Assembly: GCA_002010215.1 (NCBI GenBank)
Contig: MTMY01000038.1
Span: 1 to 40,955, forward strand
From: Archaeoglobus sp. JdFR-37
Lineage (GTDB): Archaea; Halobacteriota; Archaeoglobi; Archaeoglobales; Archaeoglobaceae
Length of the DNA: 40,955 bases
Direction of reading: 5' to 3'
Made by a program: the position numbers and the translations under genes. The notes beneath the pieces were generated by a model. That model was given only the letters and a program-made list of their open reading frames with translations. It was not told where the DNA came from and did no database searches. Positions 5,759 to 26,906 of the stretch are shown here, one piece after another (positions within the stretch are counted from its first letter, which is position 1; each line of letters opens with the position of its first letter).

Positions 5759-6280
5759 TCAAGAGAGCATCTCGTTAACGAACTTCTGAAACTCCTTTAC
5801 CTGCTCCTCACTTATATCTGCCAGAATTACCCTTTTCAGTTTGCTTCCAGCATCTATGTGGGCTTTCAGCTCTTCCACCATTATCCTTGCAGCTTCAGCT
5901 TTTGGAAAACCTCCCACTCCGGTTCCGAGAGCGGGGAATGCAATGCTTTCAATTCCGAGCTCTTCAGCTTTTTTCAGGGCTGCACGCATTGCAAGCCTTA
6001 CTTTCCCCGCATCAGTCCTGAAGTCCATTTCCATAGTTGGAGCATGGATTACGTATTTCGCCTTTAGCTTCCCTGCTGTTGTAGCAACAGCCTCTCCAAT
6101 TTTTATTGGGCCCTGTTTGACTGCTTCATCTTCAATCTCCTTCCCACCAGCCCTTTTGATGGCTCCGGCAACGCCACCACCCATCACAAGGCGTGTGTTG
6201 GCAGCATTTACTATTGCATCCACCTCAAGCTTTGTTATGTCACCAAGGTGAGTTATGACTTCAACTCCCCTGTAGTTCAT
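5759..6280 (-). CDS. Macrodomain protein (ADP-ribose binding / O-acetyl-ADP-ribose deacetylase)
   Basis: GDIT, AIVNAAN, GGGVAGAI, PALGTGVGG. ATG 6280 lies about 23 nt downstream of a TTTTAC TATA-like box. Confidence 0.93.
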   Translation of the reverse strand: MNYRGVEVITHLGDITKLEVDAIVNAANTRLVMGGGVAGAIKRAGGKEIEDEAVKQGPIKIGEAVATTAGKLKAKYVIHAPTMEMDFRTDAGKVRLAMRAALKKAEELGIESIAFPALGTGVGGFPKAEAARIMVEELKAHIDAGSKLKRVILADISEEQVKEFQKFVNEMLS

Positions 6281-6356
6281 AATGAATGATTGTCCAGACA
6301 AAGTAAAAGGTTTCTCATTTTTATTTTGATATGCTTTTAACCTTCAATACCACTGA

Positions 6357-6374
6357 AATGAAACTCAGGGACGG
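6357..6374 (+). repeat. 18-nt direct repeat, copy 1 (ORB-like)
   Basis: AATGAAACTCAGGGACGG, identical to 9362-9379. Confidence 0.8.
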
Positions 6375-6398
6375 AGGAGGTCTGGGTGAATGGAAAAA

Positions 6399-7880
6399 TT
6401 AATTGTTGTAAAAATTAAGCCTCATCACATTCCCGCCTGGCTGATATACTGCAACTTTTCCGGGCATTGGATTCAGGTTCACCTTTTTTTGGAACTCTGT
6501 CTGGCTCTGCCATGTTGACGAGTTTATGCAGAAAACTCCCCTGTAGAATCCCACTCCATAGGTGTGGACATGTCCAGTATGAAGGATATCTGGAACCTCA
6601 TCAATTACCAGATAATCTTCCCTCTCTGGAGCTATGGGAGAGCGCTGCCCATACATGGGAGCAAGGTGTCTTCGTTTCAGAAGCTCGTACAGAGCTTCAT
6701 GGGGCCTCTCGTAGTTCAGCCTTGGTATCTTTGCCATCAAGTCGTCCAGACTCCTGCCGTGGTAGATTAGAAGCTTCAATCCGTCAAGATCCAGAAGTGA
6801 AGGATTTCCCACGTGGGTCACATTCTTTCCAAAAAGGTCTGAAAACTCCTTTGGAAGGCACGGCTGGGGTTCCGCCTGTCTGACAGCATCGTGGTTTCCG
6901 GGGGCTAAGATTATTTTTATGTGGTCGGGAACCCTGTCAAGCTGGGATGCAGCTTCTTCGTACTGCTCATAAATATCAAAAATCGTCAACTCGTGCTCCT
7001 GCCCCGGATACACACCGACTCCGTCAACAACATCTCCAGCAACAACCAAGTATTTCACCTTCTCAGAGCCCTCTCCAATTTCCCCATTCAGCCACTTCAA
7101 AAACATCTCCCACTCCTTCTCTAGGAAGGTGTTGCTGCCGAAGTGAGCATCTGATATGAAAGCAATAGCAAAGTCCTTCTTAATGGTCTTACTGCCGTTG
7201 GGAATATCTGGAAATACTATTCTTTCAGCCATTATGCTTCTCCCACCTCTTATGGTTCCCGAAACTCCGATGACCTCGTCTCCCATCAGTTCCATGGCAA
7301 TCTCCTTTATCTTCCCCGTTGCAACAACGCTGACGATGCCTGTACGATCCTCTAGCTCGAAAATTGCCGTGTTCTGGTTGACCTCTCTCACTTCATTGAC
7401 AATCCCAATAACGTCAATGTCCTGAGTCCTCACCTTCCCTATTGCAGAAATGGGAATGGCTTTAAGGCGAGGCTTCAGTATTCTCGATATCTTTTCCAGT
7501 CTGGAGTTGAAGTAGACAACGAAGTCCTCTACTGTCCCCCTACAAGAAGATTTCCCAGTTATATCTTTCAGTACAGATACTTCCCGGACCTCTGCTGATT
7601 TCACCTTTTTAATCTCCTCTTTTGCCATCTCAGCTTCAGATTTGGGTTGAATGCTCTGAACGGGACTAACAGTTTTAACCTTGAACTTGGAGATTATGGG
7701 CTTTATCTCTTCAGGAGTTATTATAAAGCAACCATTGGCAGTCCTGCATATTTCAGCGATTATCCCATCTATATCCTCCTTCATCCCCTTAAGAAGCTCC
7801 ACAGCAGATGGATGGATGTTGTAGCCATGCATGGCGAACTTCGTAATTATAAGTCTTGAGTCGATATCTTTAACTATCAT
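6399..7880 (-). CDS. polB: DNA polymerase II (PolD) small subunit DP1
   Basis: OB fold plus phosphoesterase motifs ISDAHFGS, GDVVDGVGVYPGQ, PGNHD, YHGRS, GHVH. ATG 7880 follows a GGAGGAG RBS. Confidence 0.95.
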   Translation of the reverse strand: MIVKDIDSRLIITKFAMHGYNIHPSAVELLKGMKEDIDGIIAEICRTANGCFIITPEEIKPIISKFKVKTVSPVQSIQPKSEAEMAKEEIKKVKSAEVREVSVLKDITGKSSCRGTVEDFVVYFNSRLEKISRILKPRLKAIPISAIGKVRTQDIDVIGIVNEVREVNQNTAIFELEDRTGIVSVVATGKIKEIAMELMGDEVIGVSGTIRGGRSIMAERIVFPDIPNGSKTIKKDFAIAFISDAHFGSNTFLEKEWEMFLKWLNGEIGEGSEKVKYLVVAGDVVDGVGVYPGQEHELTIFDIYEQYEEAASQLDRVPDHIKIILAPGNHDAVRQAEPQPCLPKEFSDLFGKNVTHVGNPSLLDLDGLKLLIYHGRSLDDLMAKIPRLNYERPHEALYELLKRRHLAPMYGQRSPIAPEREDYLVIDEVPDILHTGHVHTYGVGFYRGVFCINSSTWQSQTEFQKKVNLNPMPGKVAVYQPGGNVMRLNFYNN

Positions 7881-18389: not shown

Positions 18390-19301
18390 GTGGATAATGT
18401 GGATAACATGAATGATGTAAATGACGTGGGAGAATTGGAGGAAAGATTTGAAAAAACAATCAAAGCTGGAGAAGTGCTGAGACAGGTTAGAGAAGAAGTG
18501 AGGCCAAGGATAAAACCGGGGGTAAAGCTCCTGGAAGTGGCAGAATTCGTGGAAAACAGGATAAGAGAGCTGGGAGCTGAACCAGCCTTCCCCGTCAACA
18601 TCTCCATAAATGCTGATGCCGCTCACTTCACACCTAAAAAAAATGATGAGAGGGCATTCAAGGAAGGAGACCTTGTGAAGATAGATATTGGTGCTCACAT
18701 TGACGGTTTTATTGCAGATACTGCCTTCACGATTGATCTTGGTGATCATGAAGAGCTTGTAAAAGCAGCAGAGGATGCGCTAAAGAGAGCAATTGAAGTG
18801 GTGGAGCCAGGGATAGAAACTTCAGTTATAGGGGCGGCAATAGAGGAGGCCATCAAGGAGTTCGATTTCAGGCCCATAGTGAACCTCACCGGTCATGGCT
18901 TTCTGCCCTACGTTGCCCACGCACCTCCTACAATATACAACTTCAAAACCGACAGAGGTGTGAAGGTGGAAGAGGGCATGATCTTCGCTATCGAACCCTT
19001 CGCCACCAACGGGGCTGGAAAGGTGGCGGAGAGGGGAGAGGTGGAGATCTACTCTGTGGTTGCAGCTAAACCTACCAGAATGAAAATGGCCAGAGAGTTG
19101 CTTAAGGAGGTGGAGAAGTACAAAACCCTTCCATTTGCCAAAAGATGGCTTACCAAGGCTCCAGAAGTGATTCTTTCGAAGCTGGTGAGAGAAGGGATAC
19201 TCAGGAGCTATCCCGTACTCACAGAGATTAACAGAGGTCTTGTCAGTCAGGCAGAGCACACAATAATTGTTGAGAGTAACAGGGCGAGGATTGTTACCTG
19301 A
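18390..19301 (+). CDS. map: Type II methionine aminopeptidase
   Basis: AFPVNISIN, AAHFTP, DIGAHIDGFIADTA, NLTGH, AIEPF, QAEHT. GTG 18390 follows GAGGTGA. Confidence 0.95.
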   Translation: MDNVDNMNDVNDVGELEERFEKTIKAGEVLRQVREEVRPRIKPGVKLLEVAEFVENRIRELGAEPAFPVNISINADAAHFTPKKNDERAFKEGDLVKIDIGAHIDGFIADTAFTIDLGDHEELVKAAEDALKRAIEVVEPGIETSVIGAAIEEAIKEFDFRPIVNLTGHGFLPYVAHAPPTIYNFKTDRGVKVEEGMIFAIEPFATNGAGKVAERGEVEIYSVVAAKPTRMKMARELLKEVEKYKTLPFAKRWLTKAPEVILSKLVREGILRSYPVLTEINRGLVSQAEHTIIVESNRARIVT

Positions 19302-19318: not shown

Positions 19319-20260
19319 TCAAACCACCAGCTTGGTAATGCCAGAGAAAATGACGATAGACGCTATAGAGTTAGAGCCAGGGACCGGGTAATCACCATAC
19401 CTTATTTCAATATCTGGATTAACTCTTTCGATGCGGGAAATACAGGCGAAAAGGCCGTCCATCGTTATCTCTTCTGGCTCACCGCTGAAAACTAACAGAG
19501 CACCTTTGGCTGTTGTGACATCACAATTCACGCTAAGGCTGGAAAGGCTTTCGTCAACCATATCCACCATTCTCTTCGTCCTGATTGCTTTGAGTTCGCT
19601 TTCCCTTCTGTAAACTATTCTCCTTATGAGGTGGTGCTGAAGTTTCTGCCTCGACATGCCCAGCACTGCTAACCCCCTCTTCCTTATGGCATTGAAGACG
19701 TCGCTAGTATCAACTACAACCTCTCCAGCCCTTCTCTTTTTCAGATCTATTTCTCCAACAAGAGCGATGGTGTTGAGTGATTCCAGAACGTAGTTTCTGT
19801 AGTTATCTCTTCTTTCAAAGATGATCGGCACATCAAACTTTTTACTTGCATTTCTCAGCCTCATTCCCATTTCCCTGAAATCCGCTTCATCCAGTGTTGG
19901 AATTGTAACGAGTGCCATAACGGGCTCTTCTGTAACATCTTTCAGCTCATCTGCCATCTCCATGGCAGTTTGGAAGGCGAAGTCATCATCAAGGGCAAAG
20001 GCGAGCATGGAACCCTCAAAAATCTCATATCTCGAGAGCATCGAATTCAAAGCACTCGTTAGATCTACCTCACCATTTCTGTACACAACGTAATAGCGAT
20101 TTTTGTCGGGAATGGCCTTGGCACTTTTTATTAGCCCCACATCATTGCTAATAGCATGACACTTGAAGAGGGGGGCATTGTTAACCCTGGCCCCTCTTCT
20201 CGCGAAGATCTCTGTAATTTCAACGCCTTCTCTGCCTATCCCGACGGTAAGGAGTTTCAT
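19319..20260 (-). CDS. Divergent tubulin/FtsZ-superfamily (CetZ-like) protein lacking the GTP-binding signature
   Basis: N-terminal MKLLTVGIGREG (T1-like), GEVVVDTSDVFNAI (T7-like), C-terminal ALLVFSG and IRYGDYP. No GGGTG[S/T]G motif. Confidence 0.72.
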   Translation of the reverse strand: MKLLTVGIGREGVEITEIFARRGARVNNAPLFKCHAISNDVGLIKSAKAIPDKNRYYVVYRNGEVDLTSALNSMLSRYEIFEGSMLAFALDDDFAFQTAMEMADELKDVTEEPVMALVTIPTLDEADFREMGMRLRNASKKFDVPIIFERRDNYRNYVLESLNTIALVGEIDLKKRRAGEVVVDTSDVFNAIRKRGLAVLGMSRQKLQHHLIRRIVYRRESELKAIRTKRMVDMVDESLSSLSVNCDVTTAKGALLVFSGEPEEITMDGLFACISRIERVNPDIEIRYGDYPVPGSNSIASIVIFSGITKLVV

Positions 20261-21906: not shown

Positions 21907-22356
21907 TCACCTCTTGCTCTCTCCACTTCTACGCCTCTTCACCTTTACCAACCCTTCTTTTTCAGCCTTTATGCATATGATATCTCCAGTTCTAATCATC
22001 TCCAGTGGATTCTTTTCGAGTTTATCTATTACTGGTATCCCTGCAAGTATGGCCCCTACTGCAATTATTGGTTCGCTCTCAACATTTATAATGCCAGCGG
22101 GGGCAACACCTTTTTTAGCCATTCTAAGAATTACATAACTTCCAACAGTAGAACCCCTGCCTGATGGAAACACGAAAATTTTGCCTGCTATGCTTTCTCC
22201 CCTGATGTCGCTGTCTTCAGCAACAACAATGCCCGTTTCAGGATCAACATCTCCTAAGAATGAGAAATTCCGCTTACTGACTATTGCCTCACCCTCCGTC
22301 TCTCCTCTCGATATTGTTCTTCCCCTGATTCTGACTCCGTTAACCTCAATCGTCAC
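21907..22356 (-). CDS. Aconitase X swivel subunit (phosphomevalonate dehydratase small subunit)
   Basis: FSFLGDVDPETG, GRGSTVGSYV, APAGII. GTG 22356 overlaps the large-subunit end. Confidence 0.9.
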   Translation of the reverse strand: MTIEVNGVRIRGRTISRGETEGEAIVSKRNFSFLGDVDPETGIVVAEDSDIRGESIAGKIFVFPSGRGSTVGSYVILRMAKKGVAPAGIINVESEPIIAVGAILAGIPVIDKLEKNPLEMIRTGDIICIKAEKEGLVKVKRRRSGESKR

Positions 22357-23506
22357 TAAAGGCCCTCCTGATGCAGTCCTTAATGCTGCCAAAAATAACA
22401 TTCACCCCCCTGAGCTTGGGGAGGTAAGTCAAAGCTTTTCCGGAATTGACCATAACACATTCATACCTGCTGGTTGAAGGCGAAACAACCATGCACGTGT
22501 CGCAGAAAACTTTGAATCCTATGCTTTCAAGCTTTTTAATCAATTCGTCATTCTCACCGTACACCTTTCTGGATGTAAAGAGCCAAATCTCTTTTTTAAC
22601 CCCGCCCAGAGAAGTGAATTCTGAGGCTATTTCGAAAATTTTCCTGAGCTCTTCAGGACTGAGATGGGGACAGCCTAAGGCAATGAGGTCAGGTGTGCAA
22701 TCGTCTGAGCTAAAATCAATTTCAGCCAGATCGATCTCCATCCTCTCCCTTGGCCTCTCAAAATCACCGCTCTCCGGCGTAACTCCCTCAACATGAAACA
22801 GCGCTGTATTGCCCTTTGCAGCCATTGCAGCCCCCATTTGCTTAAGTTCGTCTTCTGTGACAGTTCTGGGAAGGCTGATAAGAGGTATTTCTCCCGGGAT
22901 TTTATCCCCCAGTAAGTAGCCAAGAAACGAAGGATTGAAAACCTCTGCTCCTCGGACTCGGACATAGATTGTTGGAGCCCTATTTTCCTTCACATGAAGT
23001 CCATAGTGGGGTGTTTTGCCGATTATAGCTGAAGCAATTGCGGTTATTCCGCTCTCCCTATTTGTTCTCGCCCCCACCACGGAGTTTGCGTAGCAGACAG
23101 CAGAGCTCTCCGCCCAAGCCAAATGGTCTCCGAAGGAGGGCGTGTGAAGGTAGTAGGGTGTGCAGGTTAAGGAAAGCTCTGCACCGATTCTCTGCAGGGC
23201 TTTGAGAACCCTCATCTGCTTGCTGTAGAATTCAATGTCAATTCCCATCTCTTTCCATCTCTCCACATCCATACCGGCAGGATTGACATAAGCGGGAACT
23301 TTCACCCTAGCATTTAAACATTCAAGCCACTCCAAACCAGCATCGCCAATGTTATCATAAGAAACTCCGCTTATCTGGGCACTCTTTACCGGTATGAGCC
23401 TGTCTGCATCGTATATCTCTCCGATGGCCACGAGTATCTCCATGCACTTGGCAATCGTCTCATTGTCTGAGCTGAGAAGCTCTTCTTCTTCCCGGGTCAG
23501 GTGCAT
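22346..23506 (-). CDS. Aconitase X catalytic subunit (phosphomevalonate dehydratase large subunit)
   Basis: QISGVSY, TCTPY, AWAESSA, GARTNRE, GCPH, DTCMVVSP, NSGKA. Confidence 0.92.
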   Translation of the reverse strand: MHLTREEEELLSSDNETIAKCMEILVAIGEIYDADRLIPVKSAQISGVSYDNIGDAGLEWLECLNARVKVPAYVNPAGMDVERWKEMGIDIEFYSKQMRVLKALQRIGAELSLTCTPYYLHTPSFGDHLAWAESSAVCYANSVVGARTNRESGITAIASAIIGKTPHYGLHVKENRAPTIYVRVRGAEVFNPSFLGYLLGDKIPGEIPLISLPRTVTEDELKQMGAAMAAKGNTALFHVEGVTPESGDFERPRERMEIDLAEIDFSSDDCTPDLIALGCPHLSPEELRKIFEIASEFTSLGGVKKEIWLFTSRKVYGENDELIKKLESIGFKVFCDTCMVVSPSTSRYECVMVNSGKALTYLPKLRGVNVIFGSIKDCIRRAFSDD

Positions 23507-25646: not shown

Positions 25647-26906
25647 TCATAAAACCCTCATGTACTTCTCTCCCTGACCAAGCTCTTTCGTGGCATCTAT
25701 TCCCCATTTGTCTGACGTTTCGTTATCATAAGCGGAAGGATCAAGGCTGCTGCCCCTTGCACCCTTCACCACCACAAGATCTCTGCCAGCCTGAAATCTG
25801 GTGGCAATTGCATATTCAACATCCTCGCTGCTGTAGATGTTGATGTCTTCATCCACGACCACCACCCTTTTCAGACTCGGATGCCCTGTGAAGGCTGCAA
25901 GAATGGCGTTCTTCCCATCACCTTCCCTTTTCTTCTCAATCTGGACAATGGCATGGAAGTAATGTCGCCCACCAGCTGTCAGAACAACATTCCTCACCCT
26001 GCAGACCCTTGAAACTGCTTTGTAAATCTCCCCCTCATATGGCAGCCCCATCAGCAGCTGATGTTCGTAATCTGCAGGCGTTATTGAGTAGTAAACGGGA
26101 TTATCCTTAACGAACATGGCATCAAATTCCACAACCGGTTCCAGTCTTACTCTATCATAGGTGCCGGTCAGATCAACAAAGGGGCCTTCTTCAACCCTCT
26201 CAGCAGTAATTCTGCCGAAAAGAATGATTTCTGAATCAGGAATCAGCATATCATTTAGCCTGAAGAGTTCCAGCTTGCCCATCAGCTTTGCAGCATACCT
26301 GAACTCGCTCATGTCTGTTCTAGTTGAGGCAGCAAGCATGAAGAGGGGGTGTGGAGATATGGAAACTGCTATTGGTAGCTCTTTACCCTTCCCGACGGCT
26401 TCCTGCCACATCAGAAAGGTGTGGCGGGGCTGAACTAGGCGAATGGCAGCTCTTCTGTCATCCAGCACCATCATTCTGTGTATGCTTACGTTGTAGGCAT
26501 CGACATCATCAGCATTGCTCCACGGGAGTCGGGAGATAACACATCCCGCTGTTATGTACCTGGCCTTATCATGAGGGAAGTACTTTGGCACCGGTAAATC
26601 TGAAAGCTTGGCTTTTCTCTCCTTCAGCTCCAGTTGCTCTGGTTCTTCGCCAAGGGTAATCTCTCCATCTCTCTTGGAAACCTCTACCATAAAAGGTGCA
26701 AAATCCTCTCTGCATATTCCCAGATGACCACAAATGAGATCTCTTGTAGCCAGAAAGTTCGTTGCCAGCTTTTTACCTTCCACATTCAAAAGCAGCGGAG
26801 TCTGGCGGAGATCCTTTGAATGAATAAAATCCACAACCTTGTCATGCCTGATATCGTCATCAAACCTCTGATATGAGACACTTTTCAGGACATCCCGAAA
26901 ATTCAT
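25647..26906 (-). CDS. UbiD-family prFMN decarboxylase (probable anhydromevalonate-phosphate decarboxylase)
   Basis: NVSIHRM, EGPFVDLTGTYD, VVVDEDI, SSLDPS, GIDAT; close to the aconitase X genes. Confidence 0.88.
   Translation of the reverse strand: MNFRDVLKSVSYQRFDDDIRHDKVVDFIHSKDLRQTPLLLNVEGKKLATNFLATRDLICGHLGICREDFAPFMVEVSKRDGEITLGEEPEQLELKERKAKLSDLPVPKYFPHDKARYITAGCVISRLPWSNADDVDAYNVSIHRMMVLDDRRAAIRLVQPRHTFLMWQEAVGKGKELPIAVSISPHPLFMLAASTRTDMSEFRYAAKLMGKLELFRLNDMLIPDSEIILFGRITAERVEEGPFVDLTGTYDRVRLEPVVEFDAMFVKDNPVYYSITPADYEHQLLMGLPYEGEIYKAVSRVCRVRNVVLTAGGRHYFHAIVQIEKKREGDGKNAILAAFTGHPSLKRVVVVDEDINIYSSEDVEYAIATRFQAGRDLVVVKGARGSSLDPSAYDNETSDKWGIDATKELGQGEKYMRVL

Follow-up and report, generated by a model that had tools for sequence, protein, structure and literature searches.

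What can a member of the tubulin superfamily do once its GTP-binding loops are gone? We address this question for a gene of Archaeoglobus sp. JdFR-37, in the window analysed here (the whole stretch of 40,955 nucleotides). The open reading frame at 19319-20260, on the minus strand, encodes a 313-residue protein (P0001) that we identify as a pocket-less CetZ paralogue based on its CetZ_C match, its predicted model and its best fold match, CetZ1 4b46. A preliminary description, made from the sequence alone, had seen in it a tubulin-superfamily protein without a GTP-binding loop, and the four motifs that it named are all present as described: VGIGREG at residues 6-12, LDDDFAF at 90-96, VVDTSD at 182-187 and IRYGDYP at 286-292. 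A Pfam scan finds the CetZ C-terminal domain (CetZ_C, PF21011) at residues 161-310 (E 2e-22; 80 bits against a cut-off of 21.6) and returns no match to the Tubulin GTPase domain (PF00091); the three PF00091 matches in the host genome are other genes. Across the family, CetZ_C is matched by 107 of 107 members and Pfam Tubulin by only 2 of 107, with E 0.003 at best, so that surveys using the tubulin GTPase-domain profile miss these proteins.

The AlphaFold2 model of P0001, made with an alignment of 107 sequences (P0001 and 106 of 108 homologue hits, two fragments being excluded), has a mean pLDDT of 89.9. Foldseek matches it over its whole length to CetZ1 4b46 (TM 0.80, E 2.6e-22). Structure comparison with VIA gives Z 33.1 for CetZ1 (rmsd 2.3, 283 residues) and Z 27.1 for the best FtsZ. 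The fold predicted from the model is the two-domain fold of tubulin and FtsZ with CetZ nearest, which bears out the superfamily layout originally noted. Profile-profile alignment of the family against normal CetZ spans 306 columns (probability 100, E 2.2e-41). The closest solved relatives by sequence, CetZ1 and CetZ2 of Haloferax volcanii (4b46 and 4b45), share with P0001 the predicted two-domain fold, the CetZ_C domain, the T7 loop (E218 corresponding to D187) and a basic/hydrophobic M-loop. Unlike them, P0001 has no T4 signature, a deleted T3, none of the T2/T5/T6/H7 nucleotide contacts and no C-terminal helix and tail. The helix and tail are likewise missing by comparison with normal CetZ, and 99 of 111 family members end 5-6 residues past the last strand motif.

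The differences from normal CetZ gather in the nucleotide pocket, whose loops we name by presumed correspondence with tubulin/FtsZ topology. All lie on the minus strand. The T1 remnant (residues 6-12, VGIGREG; 20225-20245) retains GxG, with GQAGG changed to Gx[RK]G[AS] across the family and R or K at position 11 in 91% of members. The T2 equivalent (residues 38-44; 20129-20149) is an NTAxxD that has lost its N and D. At the T3 remnant (residues 58-66; 20063-20089), the profile alignment shows a 16-residue deletion of the glycine-rich loop, as the preliminary description had suspected. At the T4 position (residues 88-97; 19970-19999), the alignment sets LDDDFA opposite the LGGGTG of normal CetZ; GGGTG has become [ED][DE][DE][FY] in the family, with at least two acidic residues at positions 91-93 in 97 of 111 members. 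The T5 equivalent (residues 121-128; 19877-19900) has lost EG and retained P, with indels across the family, and the stretch from T6 to the start of H7 (residues 149-157; 19790-19816) has lost DN and the H7 Asn, with a 13-residue deletion after T6. The Asn and Asp of T2, T3, the EG of T5, and the T6 and H7 Asn are all lost at the level of family columns (retention is 3% for the T6 Asn, 7% for the H7 Asn class and 0-5% for the T4 glycines).

This loss holds across the family. The signature GGG[TS]G occurs in 0/111 family proteins, as against 25/25 picked normal CetZs of Archaeoglobi and 30/51 other CetZs. It is also absent from all 90 copies drawn from whole genomes (89 full-length and one contig-end fragment); where such a copy contains a GG, it never lies at T4. 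A search bias towards T7 was checked for, and all 90 genome copies were retrieved, the weakest included. Damage to a single copy or a pseudogene is ruled out by the open frame in all 90 class matches. The pattern predicts that P0001 would show neither GTP-dependent self-polymerisation nor GTPase activity.

The opposite face of the protein tells a different story. The T7 loop and start of H8 (residues 169-190, GEIDLKKRRAGEVVVDTSDVFN; 19691-19756, minus strand) place D187 on the catalytic E218 of CetZ1, and the motif E-x3-D-x-S-D-x2-N is found in 89/89 full-length genome copies, so that the T7-like loop reported as intact is conserved and the T4 loop lost throughout the orthologues. Both D184 and D187, the equivalents of CetZ1 D215 and E218, are invariant in the family; D replaces E at the catalytic position, where the host's normal CetZ has E. 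The S9 strand (residues 285-292; 19385-19408, minus strand) carries R[YFW]GD in 89/89 full-length copies. The S8-H10 region (residues 260-280, EEITMDGxF; 19421-19483, minus strand) is conserved, with substitutions specific to the family: the H10 motif is matched by 83/90 genome copies and differs from normal CetZ by R to M, K to D/E and E to F, with K312 and W314 absent. Being conserved yet unlike normal CetZ, H10 may fit a different partner. The M-loop (residues 203-226; 19583-19654, minus strand) is basic, with a short predicted helix at 210-216, and moderately amphipathic (median moment 0.53, at least 0.6 in 31/111, a figure without a control). Residues 171-183 of the T7 loop are the sole segment of the P0001 model below pLDDT 50, and the block matching the T7 loop in the normal CetZ model has a mean pLDDT of 68. 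A loop that is invariant yet of low confidence in a monomer model is as expected of one that orders on a partner.

Counting positions by element makes the division clearer. Of the positions conserved in normal CetZ, the family retains 6/33 in the pocket and top loops, 19/27 on the T7/S8/H10/S9 side and 34/57 elsewhere; the Fisher p of 6e-5 for retention by side is descriptive only, because the element boundaries were drawn after the column table, from tubulin topology, and adjacent positions are not independent. Within the family, positions conserved at 90% number 0/43 in T2, T3, T4, T5 and T6 to the start of H7, 11/19 in T7 and 5/8 in S9. Mean family conservation is 0.27-0.43 for T2, T3, T5 and T6 to the start of H7.

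A set of near-invariant, family-specific residues (G23, V26, N27, L31, F32, N72, E79 and E82) lies outside both polymer faces. They fall in residues 23-33 and 72-83 of P0001, at 20162-20194 and 20012-20047 of the window, and could have a structural role or belong to a site for a second partner.

How might one intact face be used? In the tubulin superfamily, successive subunits build the GTPase site jointly, one supplying its nucleotide face and its neighbour the T7 face (PMC8936486, accessible text). By geometry, a subunit with the T7 face only would join a filament at its nucleotide-exposed end and could not be extended, and would therefore act as a cap. Our leading explanation, in which our confidence is evenly balanced, is that P0001 caps normal CetZ filaments, docking by its single face at the end where nucleotide is exposed. 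P0001 would bind no GTP; its T7/H8/S9/H10 face would sit on the GTP face of the terminal normal CetZ, where D184 and D187 would complete one GTPase site, so that hydrolysis would time the release of the cap. Nothing would add onto P0001, its own top face being eroded. Docking on a GTP-exposed face, as proposed in the preliminary description, would be the simplest use of a single intact polymer face.

Stimulation of hydrolysis and arrest of elongation, also proposed there, fare less well. In the accessible text on FtsZ, the S. aureus substitutions D210N and D213N suppress assembly (PMC8936486), and in that on CetZ1, mutation of the T7 residue E218 hyperstabilises polymers (bioRxiv 2024.04.08.588506). 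The T7 aspartates serve the interface as well as catalysis, and their conservation favours docking more firmly than GAP activity, which is plausible for P0001 and not implied by the T7 loop. A block to elongation is doubtful, since FtsZ filaments are described as shrinking at the nucleotide-exposed end and growing at the T7-exposed end (PMC8936486, in part). It would hold only given a microtubule-like polarity of CetZ; the accessible portions of bioRxiv 2024.04.08.588506 and bioRxiv 2026.02.15.705738 contained no statement on CetZ filament polarity. Binding at the nucleotide-exposed end of FtsZ is expected to nucleate or stabilise, according to the part of bioRxiv 2024.03.31.587266 available to us. 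Given FtsZ-like polarity, the capped CetZ end would be the shrinking one, and P0001 would set turnover, or would nucleate or anchor filaments, with its basic M-loop possibly providing the contact with the membrane. The role of the cap is thus most likely in turnover, nucleation or anchoring, rather than growth arrest.

Such a cap needs a normal CetZ to act on, and the distribution of the two genes is informative. The tubulin superfamily of the host genome comprises FtsZ1, FtsZ2, one normal CetZ and P0001, and two CetZ_C matches are found there and in most of the 96 class genomes. The pocket-less gene is single-copy in 90/96 class genomes (72/73 of those of high quality) and normal CetZ is present in 93/96, with both genes in 87; in other words, 87/90 bearers of the pocket-less gene have a normal CetZ. 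The other bearers are G065, where normal CetZ is a fragment at a contig end, and, speaking against the pairing, G084 (97% complete) and G093 (95%), two genomes of good quality in which it was not found. Family f3, with two genomes, has only the normal CetZ. In G092 the two genes share a strand, the pocket-less one starting out 147 bp upstream of normal cetZ. Less favourable to a pair, adjacency to cetZ occurs in 1/14 Archaeoglobi loci examined and 0/80 Methanomicrobiales loci.

The strict one-to-one copy number and the operon-like pair in G092 would also suit an alternating co-polymer or obligate heterodimer with normal CetZ, comparable to alpha/beta-tubulin, in which P0001 would cleave the GTP of the partner below it while its nucleotide-free top carries the next normal subunit; the acidic T4 residues (97/111) could then replace the phosphates. 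We find this improbable, given that the top-face loops are the least conserved (0.27-0.43) and carry indels, unlike a fixed interface, and that normal CetZ retains both faces in 31/31 aligned genomes carrying the pocket-less gene. Alpha-tubulin does give the catalytic acidic residue for its partner's GTP while its own GTP stays unhydrolysed; unlike in P0001, its GTP site is filled and neither polymer face is lost.

The single face that a cap requires is equally all that would be required of a GAP or sequestering factor for free CetZ-GTP monomers, which would form a closed dimer, drain GTP and shrink the polymer-competent pool; cappers often sequester too (bioRxiv 2024.03.31.587266, accessible text). 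Counter to this, the negative regulators named in that text (MinC, SulA, MciZ and MipZ) are all on the opposite, C-terminal face, and the basic M-loop retained by P0001 suggests a located role, making this explanation distinctly improbable. The same four FtsZ end-binders, as described there, cover one face of a tubulin-superfamily filament, as P0001 is proposed to do. They differ in having non-tubulin folds and in taking the C-terminal (growing) face, whereas P0001 would take the nucleotide face.

The case that P0001 is a nucleotide-independent scaffold or self-polymer, with its T7 loop reused for another partner, is a slim one. The family has invariant residues beyond the normal CetZ consensus (N27, L31, N72, E79, N163, M267 and F271) and its T7 loop is longer and basic. 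Against this, the exact E-x3-D-x2-D/E-x2-N spacing and the R-x-G-D of normal CetZ are retained, which a new partner would not obviously need.

Profile search led to a half-eroded sister family, the long-tailed CetZs of Methanomicrobiales. These proteins retain GLGG, the EG of T5, the DN of T6 and the H7 Asn, and are without T3 and the TGSG of T4 (GGG[TS]G in 0/122). They occur in 59/301 phylum genomes, 59/60 within six families, and all 59 genomes have two or more CetZ_C matches; the partner CetZ has an intact T4 in 12/12 checked. No second cetZ was seen in the flanks of the sister-family genes (0/80 loci). The deepest Archaeoglobi members of the pocket-less family, P0113 and L006, retain the T6 and H7 Asn, so that three stages of pocket erosion are visible.

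In a tree without the pocket columns, the pocket-less proteins of Archaeoglobi and Methanomicrobiales group together (96/96), and the Archaeoglobi family forms a branch separate from the Halobacteria-like CetZ. A tree of the C-terminal half leaves this grouping unresolved, and the stems of both families are long. Normal CetZs from the carrier lineages also fall into one clade (97/95); a single clade of all Archaeoglobi normal CetZs is rejected (p-AU 0.0012, for a group chosen after viewing a quick tree). In the tree without the pocket columns, which is sparser, the f3 CetZ did fall with the other Archaeoglobi at 90/86. These mirrored trees suggest that the pocket-less gene and normal CetZ travelled together, as a single event that is no proof of co-evolution. 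Carrier-lineage-specific positions of normal CetZ lie on the top loops in 5/10 cases against 37/163 (Fisher p 0.048, within one clade), which for partner-side co-adaptation would be a lead only.

Because the normal CetZs of both lineages fall in one clade, the comparative data make CetZ a likelier partner than FtsZ, a choice that the preliminary description had left open. Capping by the same mechanism with FtsZ1 or FtsZ2 as target, which would make P0001 a division regulator, has a slimmer chance still than a scaffold. Both FtsZs are in the host genome, the catalytic residue is D as in FtsZ, and G084 and G093 carry the gene with no normal CetZ detected. Opposed to these points are the mirrored CetZ trees, the predicted fold, nearer CetZ than FtsZ, and the 90/301 phylum genomes that have no CetZ_C match, hence neither paralogue, and in which FtsZ is assumed. 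That P0001 is an ordinary if divergent CetZ holding guanine nucleotide in an unusual way is very unlikely: the retained T1 GxG with its conserved R/K, and the T5 EG, T6 DN and H7 Asn of the sister family, are outweighed by the family's near-complete loss of the T6 Asn, H7 Asn and T4 glycines, by acidic residues at the phosphate-binding position and by the scarcity and weakness of Pfam Tubulin matches.

Returning to the one-faced cap, a useful comparison is gamma-tubulin, a divergent paralogue that works through a single polymer face to cap and nucleate at the end that grows slowly or shrinks. The face used by gamma-tubulin, which does bind GTP, is the GTP face; P0001, by analogy, would have dispensed with that face and kept the opposite one. 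A fuller version of our explanation, tentative and unlikely as a whole, is that P0001 is a dedicated, GTP-free tubulin paralogue from which CetZ filaments are nucleated and anchored at their nucleotide-exposed end, and which comes off through the hydrolysis that it sets in motion. It would be an archaeal gamma-tubulin in mirror image, passed on together with its partner CetZ; Archaeoglobi and Methanomicrobiales would share this unit of two genes, and three stages in the erosion of the pocket would be on view.

The gene itself has been catalogued before. In its accessible text, the survey of Brown and Duggin 2023 (PMC9856176) counts four members of the tubulin superfamily in each Archaeoglobales genome; it describes two CetZs in this order and in Methanomicrobiales, suggested to be functional pairs with separate functions. 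Among its entries are genes of 933 bp from Ferroglobus placidus and Archaeoglobus veneficus; accessions for the second CetZ are D3S2A9, F2KRD9 and O28545. Our homologues from these two species, P0010 and P0005, have 310 residues. Species, gene length and separate branch agree, and the pocket-less family is very likely the 'non-Halobacteria-like' second CetZ of that study (PMC9856176, in part), which treats it as a CetZ whose M-loop is short and whose function is separate. Loss of the pocket is unmentioned in the portion of the paper available, and its main text contains neither 'T4 loop' nor 'T7 loop'; the predicted structures in its Figure S1 may bear on the novelty of this loss. The accessible parts of PMC9871819 and bioRxiv 2026.02.15.705738 hold nothing on pocket loss. 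Our literature searches, with subscription papers outside their scope, returned no report of a pocket-less CetZ, and Duggin 2015 and Aylett and Duggin 2017 may mention the family. It is real, conserved and catalogued as a gene, and its pseudo-GTPase nature was apparently unrecognised before. In both orders, Archaeoglobales and Methanomicrobiales, the 'second CetZ' probably forms no polymer of its own.

Little is known of how CetZ filaments start, are placed and turn over. For such questions nature offers a reagent, a one-faced subunit retained by almost all genomes of an archaeal class: adding P0001 to normal CetZ would reveal the growing end, and also whether a tubulin paralogue can be an end-specific cap or GAP outside eukaryotes.

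Several further observations concern gene neighbourhoods. A functional link to neighbouring genes was ruled out because the neighbours are not fixed: methionine aminopeptidase is encoded close to the pocket-less gene in at least 7/14 Archaeoglobi loci, Nudix in at least 3/14 and M50/AcnX in at least 3/14, and Methanomicrobiales loci have other neighbours. In the window, the methionine aminopeptidase gene (18390-19301) adjoins the P0001 gene; one also lies near normal cetZ in two f3 genomes (L008:3636-4499 and L009:11464-12327), and this shared neighbour is perhaps a trace of an ancestral common locus. The tandem of pocket-less and normal cetZ with 147 bp spacing occupies L006:6987-9305. Next to it comes a gene (5812-6975) whose product is predicted to be anchored in the membrane, and a homologue of this gene also comes after normal cetZ in L008 and L009. 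Elsewhere in the window, AcnX swivel and AcnX genes (21907-23506 and 25647-26906) have a UbiD-family gene nearby, a set that we take to be the ordinary one expected for the modified mevalonate pathway. A promoter and terminator scan returned 9 sites against 5.8 expected; its consensus is of bacterial type and uninformative for an archaeon.

Members of the sister family (P0116-P0162; loci L082-L161, with matches from about 6001 onward) often have a poorly conserved C-terminal extension of 200-550 residues. Their neighbours include a putative NrpR-like gene in 70/80 loci and a putative dCTP deaminase-like gene in 68, and also putative mer/mtd-like genes. In family f12, G225 and G201 have four and two near-equal normal-type CetZ_C matches, where one is usual. 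Finally, the CetZ-like proteins P0215, P0228, P0244, P0247, P0193 and P0206 have altered T2/T4 motifs and branch apart from the pocket-less family in a quick tree, hinting at possible independent erosion of the pocket.
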